From contig DATHZQ010000091.1 of NCBI GenBank assembly GCA_035458525.1, positions 70,201 to 134,200 on the forward strand: DNA of 64,000 nucleotides, in the 5' to 3' direction. The DNA is from Acidimicrobiia bacterium. GTDB taxonomy: Bacteria; Actinomycetota; Acidimicrobiia; Spongiisociales; UBA5794. Made by a program: the position numbers and the translations under genes. Of this stretch, positions 1,303-28,515 are shown piece after piece. The notes beneath the pieces were generated by a model that was given only the letters and a program-made list of their open reading frames with translations, had not been told where the DNA came from and did not search any database. Every line of letters begins with the position of its first letter. Positions within the stretch are counted from its first letter, which is position 1.

Positions 1303-1605
1303 CGTTCTCCGCTTCGGAAACGCTCGGTTTCCCCCCTGTTCCGCCTCCGAGGTCAGCCGACACGTCGAGGCCTACACATAGCTGCGAGCTGCAACCATCC
1401 GGCCACAAATGAGCCGCCGGACCCATGCTCTTTTTTTCCGGCGGGCTCCGGGTATTCGGTCCCTACTCACGGACGGCGGAAAGGCCCAAGATGGAACCAT
1501 ACGGAGAGTGACGGGGGGCGCTTGAAGTCCGGCTCAAATGCGGTCACCCGAGCCGGACCTAGCCAATGGTGAGACCGACCCGCATCTAGCGGCTGGGAGG
1601 TCGCC

Positions 1606-24362: not shown

Positions 24363-24455
24363 AAGTGACCTGATCCGGCAGGCCCTTTGGCCCTTCCTGG
24401 CTGGTGCAAAGGTCCCTATCGCTTATCGACGATTCACGAAATGATGGCCCTAGAT

Positions 24456-24471
24456 TGTGAAATAGTTCACA
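24456..24471. promoter_or_regulatory. Perfect TGTGA-N6-TCACA inverted repeat, site 2
   Basis: tgtgaaatagttcaca lies 30 nt upstream of ATG 24501 of the membrane-protein gene. It has the same extended consensus as site 1. Confidence 0.55.
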
Positions 24472-24500
24472 AGACACTCACTCACCGAGGAGGAACACTC

Positions 24501-25199
24501 ATGATGGCCAAGCGACTGAGAATGCTAGGCACGGTCCTGGCGCTGATCGGGCTCGGCTTTATGGTCGCGGGCGTCGTCGCCTACACGCGAGTGCAGGACG
24601 GCTACGAATCGCTCCAGGCGTTCAGCGAGACGCAGAACGTCAGCCTGAGCTACAACGAGGATGGCCAGCTCATCGATCGCGGCACCACTGAGGGCGCCGA
24701 GGCGATCATGACGACGCTGACCGACGACTGGGGCTACCCGGTCAACGAAGCAGACCTCGACCCGAACGATCCCCTCGTGAACACGGCAAGCGAGTACATG
24801 TACCAGATGGCCACGATCGTCTACCACGTGATCCACGGCACGCAGACGATCGAGCTGACCGAAACCGTTGAGTACAACGGCGAGACCTTCGCCGCGGGCA
24901 CGTACGAGTTCGACATCGATGGCCGCTACTGGACCGACTTCGACCGCATGCATCCGCTCGAGGGCCCGGCACGCGGCCAGGCCTGGACCGGAACCGTGCA
25001 TGGCCTCGTTGGCGAGCTCGGTGTAGGCACCGTGACGCACTCCACCCTGCAGATGGGCTTGGCCCTGGCAGGCATCCTGGGCGCCATCGGCCTCACCTCG
25101 CTGCTGGCGGGCGGCGGCCTCTGGTGGGCAGGCCGTGAAGAGACGACCGTTGTTCCCGACACCGTCCCAGCCGACTGGAAGAAGGAGACCACCGTCTAG
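24501..25199 (+). CDS. Membrane protein with N- and C-terminal TM helices and a large extracytoplasmic domain (unknown function)
   Basis: A GAGGAGG RBS precedes MMAKRLRMLGTVLALIGLGFMVAGVVAY. The ectodomain includes WGYPVNEADLDPNDPLVNTASEYMYQMATIVYHVIHG. The C-terminal part is LALAGILGAIGLTSLLAGGGLWWAG. Confidence 0.65.
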   Translation: MMAKRLRMLGTVLALIGLGFMVAGVVAYTRVQDGYESLQAFSETQNVSLSYNEDGQLIDRGTTEGAEAIMTTLTDDWGYPVNEADLDPNDPLVNTASEYMYQMATIVYHVIHGTQTIELTETVEYNGETFAAGTYEFDIDGRYWTDFDRMHPLEGPARGQAWTGTVHGLVGELGVGTVTHSTLQMGLALAGILGAIGLTSLLAGGGLWWAGREETTVVPDTVPADWKKETTV

Positions 25200-25422: not shown

Positions 25423-25752
25423 ATGCTGCACGCACCCAATGTCCGACCACTGGAACGTCGCATCCACTCGATGCGCGCCGAAGGAATGTCCCTCGACGAG
25501 ATTGCTGCCCGGTTCGATCGGAGCCCCGATCACATCAGCCGCGTGATCGAGTGGAGTGCGATCCCGCGACCACAGCCGCGGACCGGCCGCGTCGCCGAAG
25601 CGATGGAACGCCGGGTGTTGCGACTCCGCTTCGCTGGAGAGACCCACGAACAGATTGGGACGCGGTTCCGCCGCAGCGCACGCTTCATCCGACAGGTCGA
25701 GGGCCTCGCCCACTATCGCCGCGGTCTCGAGCTGCTGACGGCACCCTCCTAG
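25423..25752 (+). CDS. Small protein made of two tandem sigma-70 region-4 / LuxR-like HTH units
   Basis: A GGAGG RBS lies 4 nt upstream. There is an internal duplication: LERRIHSMRAEGMSLDEIAARFDRSPDHISRVIEW and MERRVLRLRFAGETHEQIGTRFRRSARFIRQVEGL. Its TAG stop shares the palindrome CTAG with the convergent protease stop. Confidence 0.55.
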   Translation: MLHAPNVRPLERRIHSMRAEGMSLDEIAARFDRSPDHISRVIEWSAIPRPQPRTGRVAEAMERRVLRLRFAGETHEQIGTRFRRSARFIRQVEGLAHYRRGLELLTAPS

Positions 25753-26891
25753 CGCCGCCGGAGCAGACCCAAACCCGCCAACACCGATCCGAGCGGCAGA
25801 CATCCTTGCTGGGCCGGCCCGCCACCGCCGCCGCTCGTTGCGTCGATACCGACGGCCGTCCAGCCGTTGGCGACTGCGGTCTGCTGCGCACTGCCAGTCC
25901 CGTGGAGCTCACCGGCGATCGTCCAGGTCAGGTTGGCGCAATCCTGGAACACCGCCTGCGAGGTGAGCCGGTTGTCGGTCAGGGTGCGGAACCAGATGTT
26001 GCCGGCATCACCCCACGCATTGCCGCCGAGCTCCAGCGCCACGGTGTAGAACGCCTTGTTCGGGATGCCGGAGTTGATGTGGACGCCGCCATTGTCCGAG
26101 GTCGTCGTGACGAAGTCGTCCATATGCCCGGGCTGAGGGTCCTTGCCCAGCACCGGGTCGTCGTACGCCGTTCCCGGCGCCTTCATCGACCTGATGCCGT
26201 CGCCGTTGACGTTCCCGGTGAACAGGTCGCCTCCGATGATCCAATCAGCCGCGGCGGCCGACTGGTTGAGCGTGCGCTGGCGAACCAGCGAGCCGAAGAC
26301 ATCCGAGAAGTGCTCGTTGAGAGCGCCGGGCTGGTTGAAATACACCAACCCAGCCGTGAATTCCGTCACACCATGGGTCAGCTCATGGCCGATGACGTCG
26401 AGCGACTTCGTGAATCGATTGAACAGTCGCTGGTCCTCGGGCAGATCTTCGTCGCCATCGCCGTAGACCATCTGGGAGCCGTTCCAGAACGCGTTGTCGT
26501 AGCCAACTTGGTAGTGCACGGTGGAGTCGAGCCGCATGCCGCTGCCATCGATGGAGTCGCGCCCGAACACGTCCATGAAGAGGTCATAGGTGTCCCCGGA
26601 GCCGTCGTAGGCCTCGTCGACCGCCGGATCGCCTGAGGGCGGGTCGCCTTCGTTGCGCACCGGCGTGCCCGGCAGCGAACTGCCGTTGTTGGCGGTATAG
26701 ACGATTCGTTCCTTGCCGGGCATCGCAGCCGGCGCGGCCTCGAGACCGCCCTGCTGGCGCTGATCGCGGATCGCCTCGGAGACCTCCATGCTGGATTCGG
26801 CCGCTTGGCGTTGCGCCTCCGTGCCGTGCTCGACGACCTCTTCGTACATGTGGGGCGGAATGATGCAATGCAATCCGTGCCGTCCGGTCAT
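25749..26891 (-). CDS. M4 (thermolysin-family) zinc metalloprotease of the protealysin-like subgroup, with a Gly-rich linker and a hydrophobic C-terminal tail ending in RRR
   Basis: VIGHELTHGV (HExxH) and GALNEHFSDVFG (the Glu zinc ligand) are present. There is no signal peptide. The short propeptide carries HCIIPPHMYEEV, a PPL-like motif of protealysin-like proteases. The tail is SGGGGGPAQQGCLPLGSVLAGLGLLRRR. Confidence 0.9.
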   Translation of the reverse strand: MTGRHGLHCIIPPHMYEEVVEHGTEAQRQAAESSMEVSEAIRDQRQQGGLEAAPAAMPGKERIVYTANNGSSLPGTPVRNEGDPPSGDPAVDEAYDGSGDTYDLFMDVFGRDSIDGSGMRLDSTVHYQVGYDNAFWNGSQMVYGDGDEDLPEDQRLFNRFTKSLDVIGHELTHGVTEFTAGLVYFNQPGALNEHFSDVFGSLVRQRTLNQSAAAADWIIGGDLFTGNVNGDGIRSMKAPGTAYDDPVLGKDPQPGHMDDFVTTTSDNGGVHINSGIPNKAFYTVALELGGNAWGDAGNIWFRTLTDNRLTSQAVFQDCANLTWTIAGELHGTGSAQQTAVANGWTAVGIDATSGGGGGPAQQGCLPLGSVLAGLGLLRRR

Positions 26892-26936
26892 CCTGCGCTC
26901 TCCCTCGCTCGGTGGCCGCTTGTGTTGTCGATTCCG

Positions 26937-27359
26937 CTACCCGCCGCCGGCTCGCGCTGCCTGGTTGAGCCAGCCCAACAGAGGCACCAACGTCTCGGGC
27001 GCCCCGGCGTCGCCGGTGCGCACCGAGACCCGACGATCCCCTGTCTCGATCACGACGACGTAGTTGAACTCGTCGGCGACGGTGCCATCCCCCGCGATCT
27101 CCTCAGGAAGGTCGAAGAAGCCTGACTCGTCGATCAGCCGGCGGAGATACGCCGCATCCTCCGCGGCGAGGTCCTCCGTCGATATCTCGACCGTGCGCGT
27201 GATTCCGGCAAAGCCACCGGACCGTTCGAACATGATCTTCACGACCTCAACCTCGCCGCTCGCCGTCGTCGCACTCCTGGCTTCTGTTTCCCCGATTGGA
27301 TCGCCGCAGCCGGCGCCCGCCAACAGGAGAACCGCTACCACGAAGATACGCAACGCCAC
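26937..27359 (-). CDS. Emfourin-like protein (inhibitor of protealysin-like proteases) with an N-terminal signal peptide, possibly a lipoprotein
   Basis: MALRIFVVAVLLLAGAGCGD is followed by VKIMFERSGGFAGITRTVEISTEDLAAEDAAYLRRLIDESGFFDLP...DEFNYVVVIETGDRRVSV...LVPLLGWL. This matches my recollection of the RSGGFAGI...(F/Y)-containing emfourin fold family. It lies 45 nt upstream of the M4 protease on the same strand. Confidence 0.65.
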   Translation of the reverse strand: MALRIFVVAVLLLAGAGCGDPIGETEARSATTASGEVEVVKIMFERSGGFAGITRTVEISTEDLAAEDAAYLRRLIDESGFFDLPEEIAGDGTVADEFNYVVVIETGDRRVSVRTGDAGAPETLVPLLGWLNQAARAGGG

Positions 27360-27416
27360 GGGTCCATGCTGTCACGCGGTGCCGGGCGGCTCAAGGTGGT
27401 TGGAACACGGATGGTG

Positions 27417-27656
27417 TCAGGTCGGAACGCGGCGGGTCTCGGCAAGGTCGCGAAGCGCCCGGTTTGGTGGCACGTTCTCGAGAAACGAACGCTGCATCTC
27501 GTGGTTGGCGATTCTCGAGCTCATCCGGTCGAGGCCGCCGAGACGCATCGACTCTGCGCGCGGGTCCCCGAAACTCGCCAAGACACCATGTGAGGTGAGA
27601 AACAGGTCGATCGGAAGCTCTGTGCTGTCGACGTCGTCAGATCCCCGCCATCGCAC
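27417..27656 (-). CDS. Possible small hypothetical protein (79 aa or shorter)
   Basis: Its GC3 is somewhat higher than that of the competing plus-strand ORF. It overlaps the patatin stop by 20 nt. I recognise no family (…MSSRIANHEMQRSFLENVPPNRALRDLAETRRV). Confidence 0.3.
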   Translation of the reverse strand: MRWRGSDDVDSTELPIDLFLTSHGVLASFGDPRAESMRLGGLDRMSSRIANHEMQRSFLENVPPNRALRDLAETRRVPT

Positions 27657-28515
27657 ATGCCTTCGTCACGTCCTTCTGCGCTTGCTGCTCAATGGCCGTG
27701 GCGGCCCCCGGGTTGCGTCGCGGGAAGCCTGCCGCAACCTCCATCAGCTCGAGGGTTGGTTCCACGACCACGACGCGGCGGCCGGCGCCTCGGAGTCGGC
27801 CGAGCTCGACGTTGAGCTGCTTGCGGGCGTGGCGCGCAAGAAGCCGCCGCGAGGGTCGCGTCATCGGCGACGAAACCAGCACCACATCGCCGGGGACTCC
27901 CAGAGCCAGGTCGGCGTGGGTGGGCGATACGACACCGCCGTCGATGTAGTCGTGGCCATCGATGTGCTTGGGTTGAAACATCCCAGGCACAGCTGAAGAG
28001 GCCGCAACGGCGTCGGCGACGCTCACGTCGGTGCGATCGCGACCGAACACGACGAGCTCACCGTCAGTGACCCGGACAGCAGGAATCCAAAGCCCTGGAG
28101 GCCACCCGTCGAGATCGGGCACGCCCGGGAACTGCTCGGCAAACGCGGTGGGAAACAAGCCCCGCGGAAGCAGCCCGGAGAGGGCCAAGACCACATTCGC
28201 GCGGGCATGCCACGCATCCCGTGCGAGCTTCACCGACAACGGGCGGACACTCTTTCGAGCTTCGCGCACCTCGCTGAGGACGGCATCCCGCTGTTCGGCG
28301 CTGGGCGGTCGGCCCATGGTGGCCACGATCCGTTCCGGGTCGGCGCCGCTGCGAACGGACGCCGCCACGGCGGCGCCGGCGGATGTGCCGATGACCGTCG
28401 CAACGGCGGACAGCGTGACGCCTCGGTCGCGCAACGCAGCGAGCACGCCGGCGTGATACACCCATCCGAGCGCCCCGCCCCCGCCGAGCACCAAGGACAG
28501 CCGAGCAGGATTCAC
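27637..28515 (-). CDS. Patatin-like phospholipase
   Basis: SLVLGGGGALGWVYHAGV (oxyanion GGG.xG), GTSAGA (GxSxG nucleophile) and YIDGGV (DGG catalytic Asp). Confidence 0.9.
   Translation of the reverse strand: MNPARLSLVLGGGGALGWVYHAGVLAALRDRGVTLSAVATVIGTSAGAAVAASVRSGADPERIVATMGRPPSAEQRDAVLSEVREARKSVRPLSVKLARDAWHARANVVLALSGLLPRGLFPTAFAEQFPGVPDLDGWPPGLWIPAVRVTDGELVVFGRDRTDVSVADAVAASSAVPGMFQPKHIDGHDYIDGGVVSPTHADLALGVPGDVVLVSSPMTRPSRRLLARHARKQLNVELGRLRGAGRRVVVVEPTLELMEVAAGFPRRNPGAATAIEQQAQKDVTKACAMAGI

Follow-up and report, generated by a model that had tools for sequence, protein, structure and literature searches.

An inhibitor-first pair of a Gly-Cys-tailed protealysin-like protease and a lipoprotein-type emfourin in an Acidimicrobiia bacterium

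The window, a stretch of 64,000 nucleotides analysed as a whole, carries a known protease-inhibitor pair in what is, judged from sequence, a variant form, with an inhibitor of exported type and a Gly-Cys-tailed protease. As the best explanation of the whole, we propose an emfourin-first module that would combine a membrane-bound leaderless protease with an exported lipoprotein inhibitor, and we give this reading a probability of about 0.55. The lipobox, the inhibitor-first order and the Gly-Cys tail all recur in the nearest relatives and are therefore not noise; the signal peptide and the tail, expected to be absent from all orthologues if they were noise, are both conserved instead.

The protease-inhibitor pair and its neighbours

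The protease matches Pfam Peptidase_M4 (6.4e-28) and Peptidase_M4_C (2e-50), and its best solved relative is the protealysin precursor, PDB 2VQX (E = 2.2e-101, residues 9-349). Its AF2 model has a pLDDT of 85.8, with 2VQX as the top Foldseek match (E = 3.9e-36, TM 0.94). Sequence and model thus identify it as a protealysin-like M4 metalloprotease (PLP), and the predicted motifs IIPPHM, HELTH and NEHFSD are all found in the translation (Table 1). Cys9 is aligned to P1 of the first autoprocessing site of protealysin, with Ile at P1'; among 120 homologues it is conserved to at least 90%, and the propeptide residues P12 and P13 vary little or not at all. Only 15 codons separate the ATG at 26891 from an in-frame stop upstream of it, which leaves no room for a signal peptide, in agreement with the original prediction. 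The JGI gene caller picked a 366-aa start, which would cut off the conserved CIIPPHM; the 380-aa start is favoured because of the Shine-Dalgarno-like GAGGGAGAG before its ATG.

The product of the upstream gene matches Pfam PF20242 (4.6e-19; 69.1 bits, cut-off 27). The core of its AF2 model has a pLDDT above 90, and the 6ZYG emfourin is the top Foldseek match and the only one with E ≤ 0.001. The similarity to Serratia emfourin is remote (22% identity, TM 0.37-0.44). Profile and predicted fold mark it as a bona fide emfourin-family protein. With Pfam matches above threshold, and 2VQX and 6ZYG as the best solved relatives, the pair is the one that had been predicted.

An emfourin gene adjoins the PLP gene in 72 of the 80 genome loci, a pairing that is near-universal in the sequences compared, and no third gene is conserved with the pair in these 80 loci. 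The inhibitor-first order, which had been called unusual, is found in 3/72 genome and 4/52 metagenome loci, and is a minority arrangement of about 5-8% of loci. L082-L085, the closest of the relatives without a signal, show that the exported form is no requirement of the inhibitor-first order. The ORF coordinates give spacings of 45 nt between protease and emfourin and 57 nt between emfourin and the 79-aa ORF, and an overlap of 20 nt between the latter and the patatin gene. The protease and HTH genes are convergent, and both stop codons lie within the CTAG at 25749..25752. These coordinates, gaps and overlaps were confirmed from the sequence as predicted. The spacing suggests that the pair is probably co-transcribed.

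Table 1. Features of the locus, in positions of the window
Feature	Position	Strand	Remarks
HTH gene	25423..25752	+	109 aa; GGAGG before its ATG; called by JGI
M4 protease	25749..26891	-	protealysin-like precursor, 380 aa
16-aa tail LPLGSVLAGLGLLRRR	25752..25799	-	local form of the short basic amphipathic tail of the subclade
Gly363-Cys364	25800..25805	-	codons GGA TGT; invariant in 120/120 best homologues
Gly/Pro-rich disordered linker D350-Q362	25806..25844	-	AF2 pLDDT <50 from residue 356
NEHFSD, third zinc ligand E193	26301..26318	-	N192, E193, D197 invariant (120 homologues)
HELTH zinc-binding motif (H169, E170, H173)	26373..26387	-	invariant in 120 homologues
Cys9-Ile-Ile-Pro-Pro-His-Met, propeptide PPL motif	26847..26867	-	aligns with S8-VIPPYM of 2VQX
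Shine-Dalgarno-like GAGGGAGAG	26898..26906	-	6-14 nt before protease ATG; read from sequence
Emfourin-family inhibitor precursor	26937..27359	-	140 aa
Emfourin domain, residues 44-131	26967..27230	-	Pfam envelope; invariant R46-S-G-G, F81-F-D-L-P
Internal starts GTG (V40, ancestral emfourin start position), ATG (M43)	27231..27242	-	retained
Low-complexity tether of about 21 aa, G19-V39	27243..27305	-	AF2 pLDDT <50, residues 1-34
Lipoprotein-type signal peptide, residues 1-17, and lipobox Cys18	27306..27359	-	KD15 2.53; Cys18 = TGC 27306..27308
79-aa ORF	27417..27656	-	doubtful as gene
Patatin-like phospholipase	27637..28515	-	Pfam PF01734 at 3e-21; GTSAG serine, DGG aspartate

The original prediction also lined up the patatin gene and the 79-aa ORF with the pair, which the comparison of loci did not bear out. 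A patatin gene stands near the module only in the closest genome, L001, as a 76%-identical copy, with two opposite-strand genes between copy and module and no operon. The 79-aa ORF gave no match in a family search and has relatives in none of the 80 genome loci and none in the closest genome; its GC3 is 0.74 against 0.80-0.84 in the adjoining genes, and the original JGI gene caller placed just 43 aa at the site. The convergent 109-aa protein does consist of two tandem HTH units as proposed, matching Pfam HTH_38 at residues 11-42 (5.5e-8) and Sigma70_r4 at 62-93 (2.3e-7). Its gene is absent from L001 and all other loci compared, and by this comparison is specific to the lineage of this sequence. 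None of the three (patatin gene, 79-aa ORF, HTH gene) is a conserved partner of the pair, and all are best seen as incidental neighbours.

The N-terminus of the inhibitor

The inhibitor begins with M-ALR-IFVVAVLLLAGAG-C18-GD. The predicted signal peptide with a Cys is thus of lipoprotein type, and the pattern is conserved in the closest relatives: the lipobox is kept as ...AACGD, VAGC, LQGCGT, LHGCGT and LAAGCGD in P0122-P0125, L001, L002, L006 and L003, and is also conserved in L126/127. The inhibitor appears to be exported and lipid-anchored. The further claim that an exported emfourin is an exception to its family did not hold, as a hydrophobic N-terminus is present in at least 48 of the best 150 emfourin-family representatives and a lipobox-type N-terminus in 21 of them. 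Such putatively exported emfourins are common in metagenomes.

The signal peptide might be an annotation artefact, in which case the true inhibitor would start at V40/M43 and be an ordinary emfourin of the cytoplasm, about 100 aa long. The ancestral start codon persists, and the last 12 nt of the tether region (GAGGTTGAGGTC) form a Shine-Dalgarno-like GAGG run before the internal GTG/ATG, whereas the GTG start of the long form has no obvious Shine-Dalgarno sequence; in addition, the nearest relatives L083 and L085 are short emfourins with strong Shine-Dalgarno sequences. However, the in-frame extension with a hydrophobic core followed by [AG]-C-G-[DT] is found in at least nine relatives from three phyla, its reading frame and features persist although the tether has diverged, lipobox-type N-termini recur in the family as counted above, and the GC3 of the entire 140-codon ORF is 0.80, matching the adjoining genes. 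We regard an artefact as highly unlikely. In each of the five long-form loci examined at the DNA level, ATG or GTG occupies the ancestral start position, which is Met in 31/48 signal-bearing family members versus 1/15 in the repeats of multidomain members. Exported emfourins usually retain this internal start codon, a hint that they may be made in two isoforms, one cytosolic and one exported.

The C-terminal tail of the protease

The translated protease ends in GGGGGPAQQ-GC-LPLGSVLAGLGLL-RRR. Tails of this kind mark one large PLP subclade. They begin with a disordered linker of Pro and Gly, followed by an invariant Gly-Cys and then by some 12 residues that are amphipathic and basic. In the NJ tree, the tail-bearing proteases form one clade, with 4 state changes versus 28.7 expected; the subclade spans Chloroflexota, Gemmatimonadota, Woeseiaceae and Acidimicrobiia. 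The linkers of the homologues are 7-69 aa long and rich in P, G and T. Their tails have 8-19 aa (median 12), a net charge of +1 to +3 in 91/97 homologues, Leu directly after Gly-Cys in 75/97 and an amphipathicity above that of shuffles (z = 5). The tail of this protease is itself Gly-rich and moderately amphipathic (muH 0.38). A generic amphipathic anchor would leave the invariance of the Gly-Cys unexplained.

The original prediction took the tail as MYXO-CTERM-like. Under that reading the protease would be exported and lipidated at the Cys, with the tail removed by a dedicated intramembrane protease. The tail does have GC, a 14-residue uncharged run and RRR, and in the scan with sorting-signal HMMs that had been suggested, MYXO-CTERM was the sole model with any score. 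However, its 9 bits (E = 1.8) fell short of the cut-off of 20, leaving no model above cut-off, and ten orthologous tails gave no match to the sorting models. With transmembrane hydrophobicity set at KD19 1.6, this tail scored 1.08 and none of 120 homologue tails reached the threshold, whereas an LPVTG control from the same window scored 2.14; the median uncharged run in the 120 tails is 7 residues. Only this sequence has the 14-residue run and the RRR ending; in relatives an Arg interrupts the stretch in the middle, and the closest ones have neither RRR nor an unbroken hydrophobic run. No sorting-enzyme gene is conserved beside the tail-bearing proteases at 39 loci. A MYXO-CTERM or other sorting-tag reading was rejected on the subthreshold HMM score, the lack of transmembrane hydrophobicity and the missing N-terminal signal; the MYXO-CTERM reading is largely refuted and barely credible.

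By analogy, the tail is most likely a peripheral membrane-binding helix. It might instead act on the enzyme itself, either as a pseudo-substrate or cysteine switch, with Cys364 on the catalytic zinc and Leu365 in S1', or as a second autoprocessing site between Cys and Leu, which would add zymogen latency. M4 enzymes favour a hydrophobic P1' and are classically inhibited by thiols, which bind the zinc. The invariant Gly-Cys with its following hydrophobic residue (mostly Leu) fits such a role, as do the linkers, never shorter than 7 residues, and the Cys-Ile at the aligned N-terminal site. We nevertheless consider it rather unlikely: AF2 docks the propeptide confidently and leaves the tail disordered (pLDDT <50), the active site of the zymogen is already filled by the propeptide, as in 2VQX, and conservation beyond the first residue follows an amphipathic pattern, not a substrate-like motif. 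In addition, L013 and L100 of the tail clade have lost the Cys yet keep strongly amphipathic, Trp-rich tails.

The tail might also serve as a C-terminal export signal of the leaderless protease for some secretion route, so that protease and inhibitor would meet outside the membrane. PLPs are not known to carry signal peptides, yet some are found extracellularly or in vesicles; the existence of an exported inhibitor of lipoprotein type implies that the protease gets outside, and the invariant dipeptide suggests specific recognition. This function seems doubtful, as for most of the tail-bearing PLPs (Chloroflexota) the partner is a cytoplasmic emfourin without a signal, exported emfourins are also paired with tail-less PLPs (L054, L138-L144), and no transporter gene is conserved nearby. 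Since each occurs without the other in PLP-emfourin pairs, tail and exported inhibitor are independent features.

Proposed working and comparison with known systems

All named best matches of a thiolase in the window are from Acidimicrobiia, and an LPVTG sortase substrate is encoded in the same window; therefore, the host is taken to be a monoderm (actinobacterial). In the module that we propose, the protease is, by homology, synthesised as a cytoplasmic zymogen that has a short propeptide with the PPL motif and lacks a Sec signal. Its last 31 residues comprise the disordered linker, Gly-Cys and 16 hydrophobic residues that end in basic ones, and this kind of tail is too short to span a membrane; most likely it would lie in the plane of the membrane as a MinD/FtsA-style binding helix and park the protease on the inside of the cytoplasmic membrane. 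The inhibitor would be exported by Sec and, as its pattern suggests, lipidated at Cys18, and the tether of about 21 residues would hold it on the outer face. There it may block any protease that gets to the surface of the producing cell itself, by analogy with potempins and serralysin inhibitors. As a cytoplasmic protease and an exported inhibitor lie in different compartments, this logic needs an export route for the protease, which speculatively might get outside via vesicles or lysis, or be freed by self-cleavage between Cys and Leu. Protealysin is intracellular and stored as a precursor, and a homologue was found in membrane vesicles (PMC9505478, PMC6778150, PMC7311988).

Similar to the pln-m4in operon of Serratia proteamaculans (PMC9505478), the pair comprises a leaderless M4 protease whose short propeptide has the PPL motif, adjoined on the same strand by an emfourin-family inhibitor, but the gene order is reversed. 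The core of the 6ZYG emfourin begins at about residue 12 of 113, leaving no room for a signal, whereas the Acidimicrobiia inhibitor has a lipoprotein signal and a tether. Protealysin ends in WHQVGV, whereas the protease here has a 31-residue linker and Gly-Cys tail; at P1 of the aligned autoprocessing site it has a Cys where protealysin has a Ser.

Potempins are small lipoprotein inhibitors of Tannerella forsythia, encoded just upstream of their cognate secreted KLIKK peptidases (PMC9890683). The inhibitor-first order and the self-protection logic are alike; however, the folds are unrelated, and KLIKK peptidases, with their signal peptides and C-terminal T9SS domains, belong to a diderm host with outer-membrane anchoring, in contrast to the leaderless protease and monoderm host here. 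AprI, Inh and SmaPI are periplasmic inhibitors that guard the extracytoplasmic compartment against serralysins, which have no N-terminal signal peptide. The pairing of an exported inhibitor with a metalloprotease lacking such a signal is shared, but serralysins are M10B proteases with type I export via a C-terminal signal, their inhibitors have a different fold and are soluble, whereas the Acidimicrobiia inhibitor is of lipoprotein type and no type I system is evident here.

For the tail, MYXO-CTERM (GC_trans_RRR) shares the Gly-Cys ahead of hydrophobic residues and, with this sequence alone, the Arg3 end; the PLP tail differs in its HMM score below the cut-off, has no transmembrane-length helix, no N-terminal signal peptide on its protein and no associated sorting enzyme at the loci compared, and is found in other phyla. 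Similar in layout are the targeting sequences of MinD and FtsA, cytoplasmic proteins that end, after a flexible linker, in a basic amphipathic helix of 8-16 residues. The invariant Gly-Cys of the PLP tail is foreign to them, and the analogy would be functional only. The C-terminus of B. subtilis MinD reads ...IKSFFGV, and some homologue tails resemble it with ...LKSFFGF; the hydrophobic moment is similar as well.

Identity of the protease and its gene neighbourhood

Pfam searches placed both M4 domains in the 380-aa protein well above the gathering scores (Peptidase_M4, 98.5 bits against 22.4, E = 6.4e-28; Peptidase_M4_C, 171.4 bits against 24.4, E = 2e-50), with no match to an FTP or PepSY propeptide. 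By sequence, the solved structure closest to the protease is that of the protealysin precursor 2VQX (E = 2.2e-101), in which residues 8-340 of 341 align with residues 9-349 of the protease. The same structure was the top Foldseek match of the AF2 model (pLDDT 85.8), with an E-value of 3.9e-36, a TM-score of 0.94 and 49% identity. The hallmarks of the original prediction are all present, namely the PPL-type motif, HELTH, NEHFSD and an N-terminus without a signal. Over 120 homologues, H169-ELT-H173 and the downstream Glu ligand E193 do not vary, and conservation extends to the PPL-type motif, C9-IIPPHM, which aligns with S8-VIPPYM of 2VQX. The propeptide is short (about 50 aa), with helices 13-47 modelled at pLDDT 84-94. 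Judged from its sequence and modelled fold, the protein is a protealysin-like protease (PLP) of the M4 family.

The N-terminus of the protease is hydrophilic, and an in-frame stop 15 codons upstream of the start leaves no room for a signal peptide. The JGI/public call of the gene (L086:10511-11611) begins at Met15, resulting in a protein of 366 aa and the loss of the conserved CIIPPHM. The better start is the ATG at 26891, which is preceded by GAGGGAGAG at a distance of 6-14 nt.

The ORFs predicted around the protease were all found in place (Table), with gaps of 45 and 57 nt and one overlap of 20 nt, and the stop codons of the convergent HTH and protease genes both lie within the CTAG at 25749..25752.

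Table. Features of the protease/inhibitor region and of the riboswitch-linked surface protein gene in the window
Feature	Coordinates	Strand	Basis
c-di-GMP-II-GAG riboswitch	1505..1589	+	58.5 bits against a cut-off of 40
SpaA/SdrD-domain surface protein, 945 aa	1606..4443	+	N-terminal signal; LPVTG sortase signal
Membrane protein, 270 aa (orf270)	24387..25199	+	Hydrophobic segments near both ends
HTH protein, 109 aa	25423..25752	+	ORF; two Pfam HTH matches
M4 protease, 380 aa	25749..26891	-	ORF; Pfam
Emfourin-family protein, 140 aa	26937..27359	-	ORF; Pfam
79-aa ORF	27417..27656	-	ORF only, doubtful
Patatin, 292 aa	27637..28515	-	ORF; Pfam 3e-21

The patatin had been placed in line with the protease and its inhibitor, and no sign of its membership in the module was seen. 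Its family match is clear (PF01734, 76.9 bits against a gathering score of 27.7) and the Ser-Asp dyad motifs G43-T-S-A-G47 and YIDGG (GxSxG, DGA/G) are present in the translation; the public gene call gives 285 aa, not 292 aa. When the patatin, the 79-aa ORF, the HTH protein, orf270 and ArsR were searched by tblastn against all loci, the patatin, orf270 and ArsR were common only to L001, the closest genome, in which two opposite-strand genes separate the patatin from the module. The HTH gene has a good GGAGG, is also called by JGI and encodes separate Pfam HTH matches at residues 11-42 and 62-93, and tblastn revealed no relative of it in L001 or any other locus. All-against-all clustering of the flanking ORFs of 82 loci yielded no third partner gene or sorting enzyme, and scanning 24.3-29.7 kb for promoters, terminators and repeats gave nothing exceeding chance. 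These searches provided no evidence that the patatin, orf270, ArsR or HTH genes belong to the module, and the patatin and HTH neighbours are probably unrelated to it. The 79-aa ORF is doubtful as a gene: it has no family match and no relative in any locus searched, its GC3 is below that of the neighbouring genes, and the original JGI pipeline called 43 aa only. The orf270 product, without a family match, is 78% identical to that of the L001 gene lying directly after the protease in convergent orientation, and is the sole conserved downstream neighbour in this lineage.

Inhibitor-first order and the exported emfourins

Of the 80 genome loci, 72 have an emfourin gene adjoining the PLP, nearly always downstream on the same strand, whereas in the window it lies 45 nt upstream of the protease on the same strand. 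The inhibitor-first order holds and is unusual against the downstream norm. The same upstream, same-strand position was found in L002 and L006 from Gemmatimonadota and L003 from Woeseiaceae, and an emfourin-anchored metagenome sample contained 48 downstream and 4 upstream cases. The nearest relatives of the window protease are all inhibitor-first, namely L001 (76% identical) and the loci L082, L083/L084 and L085 (69-73%). The emfourins of L082-L085 are short and signal-less, with a strong Shine-Dalgarno sequence in L083 and L085. Taken together, these layouts indicate that this branch is characterised by the inhibitor-first order, and only part of it by the lipoprotein signal.

Several loci showed further arrangements. 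In L083/L084, where the emfourin is signal-less, an LGT (prolipoprotein diacylglyceryl transferase) gene (L083:9409-10242; L084:6168-7001), a ceramidase and an S8 peptidase are located at most 3 kb downstream of the module; L001 likewise has an S8 peptidase beside its module. In L042 and L056, tandem PLP genes are followed by one emfourin gene on the opposite strand. In a Thermoanaerobaculaceae MAG (L047:5508-6932), protease and emfourin share one frame (...WAQVGVFLGSA-MRVKLERSGG...), which may reflect a natural fusion of the two proteins or else internal initiation of inhibitor translation.

The 140-aa protein is a member of the emfourin family, matching PF20242 at 69.1 bits against a gathering score of 27 (E = 4.6e-19), with 90 of the 91 positions of the model covered. 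In the AF2 structure, residues 40-138 form a core at pLDDT >90 and residues 1-34 are disordered. The emfourin structure 6ZYG was the top Foldseek match and the sole one with E <= 0.001 (E = 5e-4, probability 1.0), at a modest TM-score of 0.37-0.44 against the NMR model; the profile-to-sequence match was weak (E = 0.96). The proposed similarity to emfourin is thus significant by both the family model and the 6ZYG fold match.

The N-terminus of the inhibitor, M-ALR-IFVVAVLLLAGAG-C18-GD, has the layout of an n-region with R4, an h-region IFVVAVLLL (KD15 2.53) and a lipobox A-G-A-G-C18. This signal agrees with the PROSITE PS51257-type rule and with the relaxed lipobox pattern of Gram-positive bacteria. 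The Gly at -3 is atypical, the relatives having the canonical LAAC, IAAC and VAGC. Lipoboxes of the closest homologues read LLAACGD, VIAACGD, AAAACGD and VAGC, those of the Gemmatimonadota/Woeseiaceae relatives LLQGCGT, LHGCGT and LAAGCGD, and a metagenome lineage (L126/127) also carries one. The lipoprotein-type signal claimed for the inhibitor is therefore upheld, with lipidation predicted and the lipobox kept in the closest relatives. A profile search of 1.84 billion representatives gave 4576 emfourin clusters; among the best 150 of the 4576, a hydrophobic N-terminal extension was seen in 48 single-domain members, of which 21 carry a lipobox, in a ranking biased to signal-bearing forms because the signal region was part of the profile. 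Exported emfourins appear to be real and recurrent, and not special to the window. A metagenome scan with the single emfourin protein gave no match, and an alignment-based scan gave matches. Eight family members (P0136-P0139, P0141, P0166, P0173 and P0249) contain 2-4 tandem emfourin domains in 259-601 aa, several with signal peptides.

The long-form, signal-bearing emfourins retain a start codon inside the gene. Signal-less emfourins start six residues before R-S-G-G, and at this position ATG or GTG is present in all five long-form loci whose DNA was examined, each with a GAGG- or AAGG-like run 6-12 nt upstream. The residue is Met in 31 of the 48 signal-bearing members and Val or Leu in 13 more, against Met in 1 of 15 multidomain emfourin repeats (Fisher p = 8e-5). 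It is possible that the N-terminal extensions arose repeatedly and recently; it is also possible that the internal start is still used and yields a cytosolic isoform beside the lipoprotein. The latter, if true, would reconcile the topology of a leaderless protease with that of an exported inhibitor. The cytosolic isoform would restrain the zymogen and the surface-tethered one would protect the envelope of the producer.

The C-terminal tail of the protease

Protealysin ends in WHQVGV, and the window protease runs on with GIDATSGGGGGPAQQ-GC-LPLGSVLAGLGLLRRR. The 120 best homologues in the database (61-76% identity, lengths of 364-415 aa) are all extended as well: their linkers measure 7-69 residues and are rich in P, G and T, Gly-Cys follows without exception, and the chain closes with a tail of 8-19 residues (median 12), typical tails being GCLESLLRLIGAAPAK, GCLTAVLRALGLAK, GCLPTLKSFFGF and GCNPFARLFARFRS. 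The tail is short, basic and amphipathic: among 97 distinct tails, 75 have Leu at position +1, an Arg stands near +6, the net charge is +1 to +3 in 91 of the 97, and the hydrophobic moment exceeds that of shuffled tails (z = 5).

Among 69 scored loci of species-representative genomes, the tail was found in 39, from Chloroflexota, Gemmatimonadota, Woeseiaceae and a few Bacteroidota and cyanobacteria; the 30 without it belong to Nostocales, Acidobacteriota, Methylomirabilis and Methanoperedens. In an NJ tree built from 88 catalytic domains, 4 state changes account for the tail against 28.7 in shuffles, and one clade of 54 tips is 93% tail-bearing. Distribution and tree together make the tail the hallmark of one PLP subclade rather than a strain quirk. 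Two members of the tail clade (L013:5938-7176 and L100:3039-4262) have no Gly-Cys, the Cys having been lost, and retain longer, Trp-rich, strongly amphipathic tails (...WRQILAWLIDLLTAL... and ...WVQILLDWLISLFGKR, respectively). Exported emfourins are found beside PLPs without a tail as well (L054, L138-L144), and the emfourin partner of most tail-bearing PLPs is signal-less, indicating that the tail and the exported inhibitor are independent.

The original prediction had likened the layout of the tail to MYXO-CTERM and related sorting tags, and this part of it fell, while the protease/inhibitor pair, the gene order and the lipoprotein signal stood. The isolated tail scored 9 bits against the curated cut-off of 20 for TIGR03901 (E = 1.8), MYXO-CTERM matched neither the whole protease, its 37-aa fragment nor ten orthologous tails, and no NCBIfam sorting-signal family was found in the isolated tail, the ten orthologous tails or the signal peptide region. 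The transmembrane helix of a MYXO-CTERM tag was rejected, as the Kyte-Doolittle 19-residue score is 1.08 here and below the threshold of 1.6 in all 120 homologues, with tails of 8-19 aa, while the LPVTG protein of the same window scores 2.14. The N-terminal signal peptide that goes with such a tag on the same protein is likewise absent from the protease. The uncharged run after the Cys has a median of 7 residues in the 120 homologues; the 14 residues of the window are an outlier, because a Gly replaces the Arg of the closest relatives (VLAGLGLL versus VLARIGLV/VLARLGLV), and the RRR ending is not conserved in relatives. Of the 49 gene calls of the 64-kb window, none but the protease carries such a tail, and no conserved partner gene was found beside the 39 tail-bearing loci. 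A Gly-Cys followed by a hydrophobic stretch and three Arg is therefore not automatically a MYXO-CTERM-type tag, and a tempting misannotation is corrected.

On the features of the tail, the reading we consider best is a helix that binds in the plane of the membrane and is tethered by the linker, comparable to those of MinD and FtsA. A second reading, that the tail serves as a cysteine switch or a second autoprocessing site, is still alive, since the invariant Gly-Cys is not accounted for by a membrane helix. The first autoprocessing site of protealysin is R-S|V-I (PMC6778150), and the residue aligned to its P1 is a Cys in the window protease (C|I-I-P-P), which also favours the second reading; this N-terminal Cys, however, is general in PLPs with or without a tail. 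The AF2 model of the protease, based on the 120-sequence alignment, docks the propeptide confidently and leaves residues 356-380 disordered; built without zinc, it is uninformative on a cysteine switch. Self-cleavage at Cys|Leu may possibly remove the tail.

Cys9 (26865..26867) is a Cys in at least 90% of the 120 homologues and a Ser in Serratia protealysin, and Cys-Cys is frequent at this position in cyanobacterial PLPs. Covariation of Cys9 with the tail Cys was considered and rejected, Cys9 being present in 36 PLPs with the tail and 29 without. From its place beside the PPL motif that blocks the active site, the propeptide Cys could itself act as a cysteine switch.

Host and comparison with known systems

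The contig derives from a JGI metagenome. All named best matches of the thiolase encoded in the window are Acidimicrobiia MAGs, and other genes of the window specify a SpaA-type protein anchored through LPVTG and a lipoprotein of the SCO4651 family, which together point to a monoderm actinobacterium as the host. The c-di-GMP-II-GAG riboswitch lies 16 nt upstream of the 945-aa surface protein gene, and the pair looks like a c-di-GMP-controlled, sortase-anchored adhesin or pilin of an Acidimicrobiia genome.

PLPs are widespread and implicated in virulence, and have no signal peptide. How they leave the cytoplasm and why they have a dedicated inhibitor is the question addressed by the tail and the putatively lipid-anchored inhibitors; the subclade-wide tail and the recurrent exported emfourins provide two concrete handles on it. 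In the proposed arrangement, the tail would hold the stored zymogen on the cytoplasmic side of the membrane, and the inhibitor, lipid-anchored on the outer face, would guard the surface of the producer once the protease is out. We give a probability of roughly one in four to the combined proposal that the subclade tail is a new determinant of membrane targeting or release and that the exported emfourin gene produces two isoforms by alternative initiation. Such a tail determinant, if true, could explain how leaderless PLPs reach membranes, vesicles or the outside. As far as could be checked, and the key primary papers aside, the Gly-Cys tail of the subclade and the internal start that exported emfourins retain are provisionally taken as undescribed.

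According to the literature, protealysin is intracellular, kept as a precursor and co-operonic with emfourin; it may be a toxin to which emfourin confers immunity, and a protealysin homologue was found in membrane vesicles (PMC9505478, PMC6778150, PMC7311988). Taken by itself, the window is a modest case, a lineage variant of this known two-gene protease/inhibitor module. The potempins are likewise lipoprotein inhibitors encoded just upstream of their peptidases, with the same protective logic (PMC9890683).
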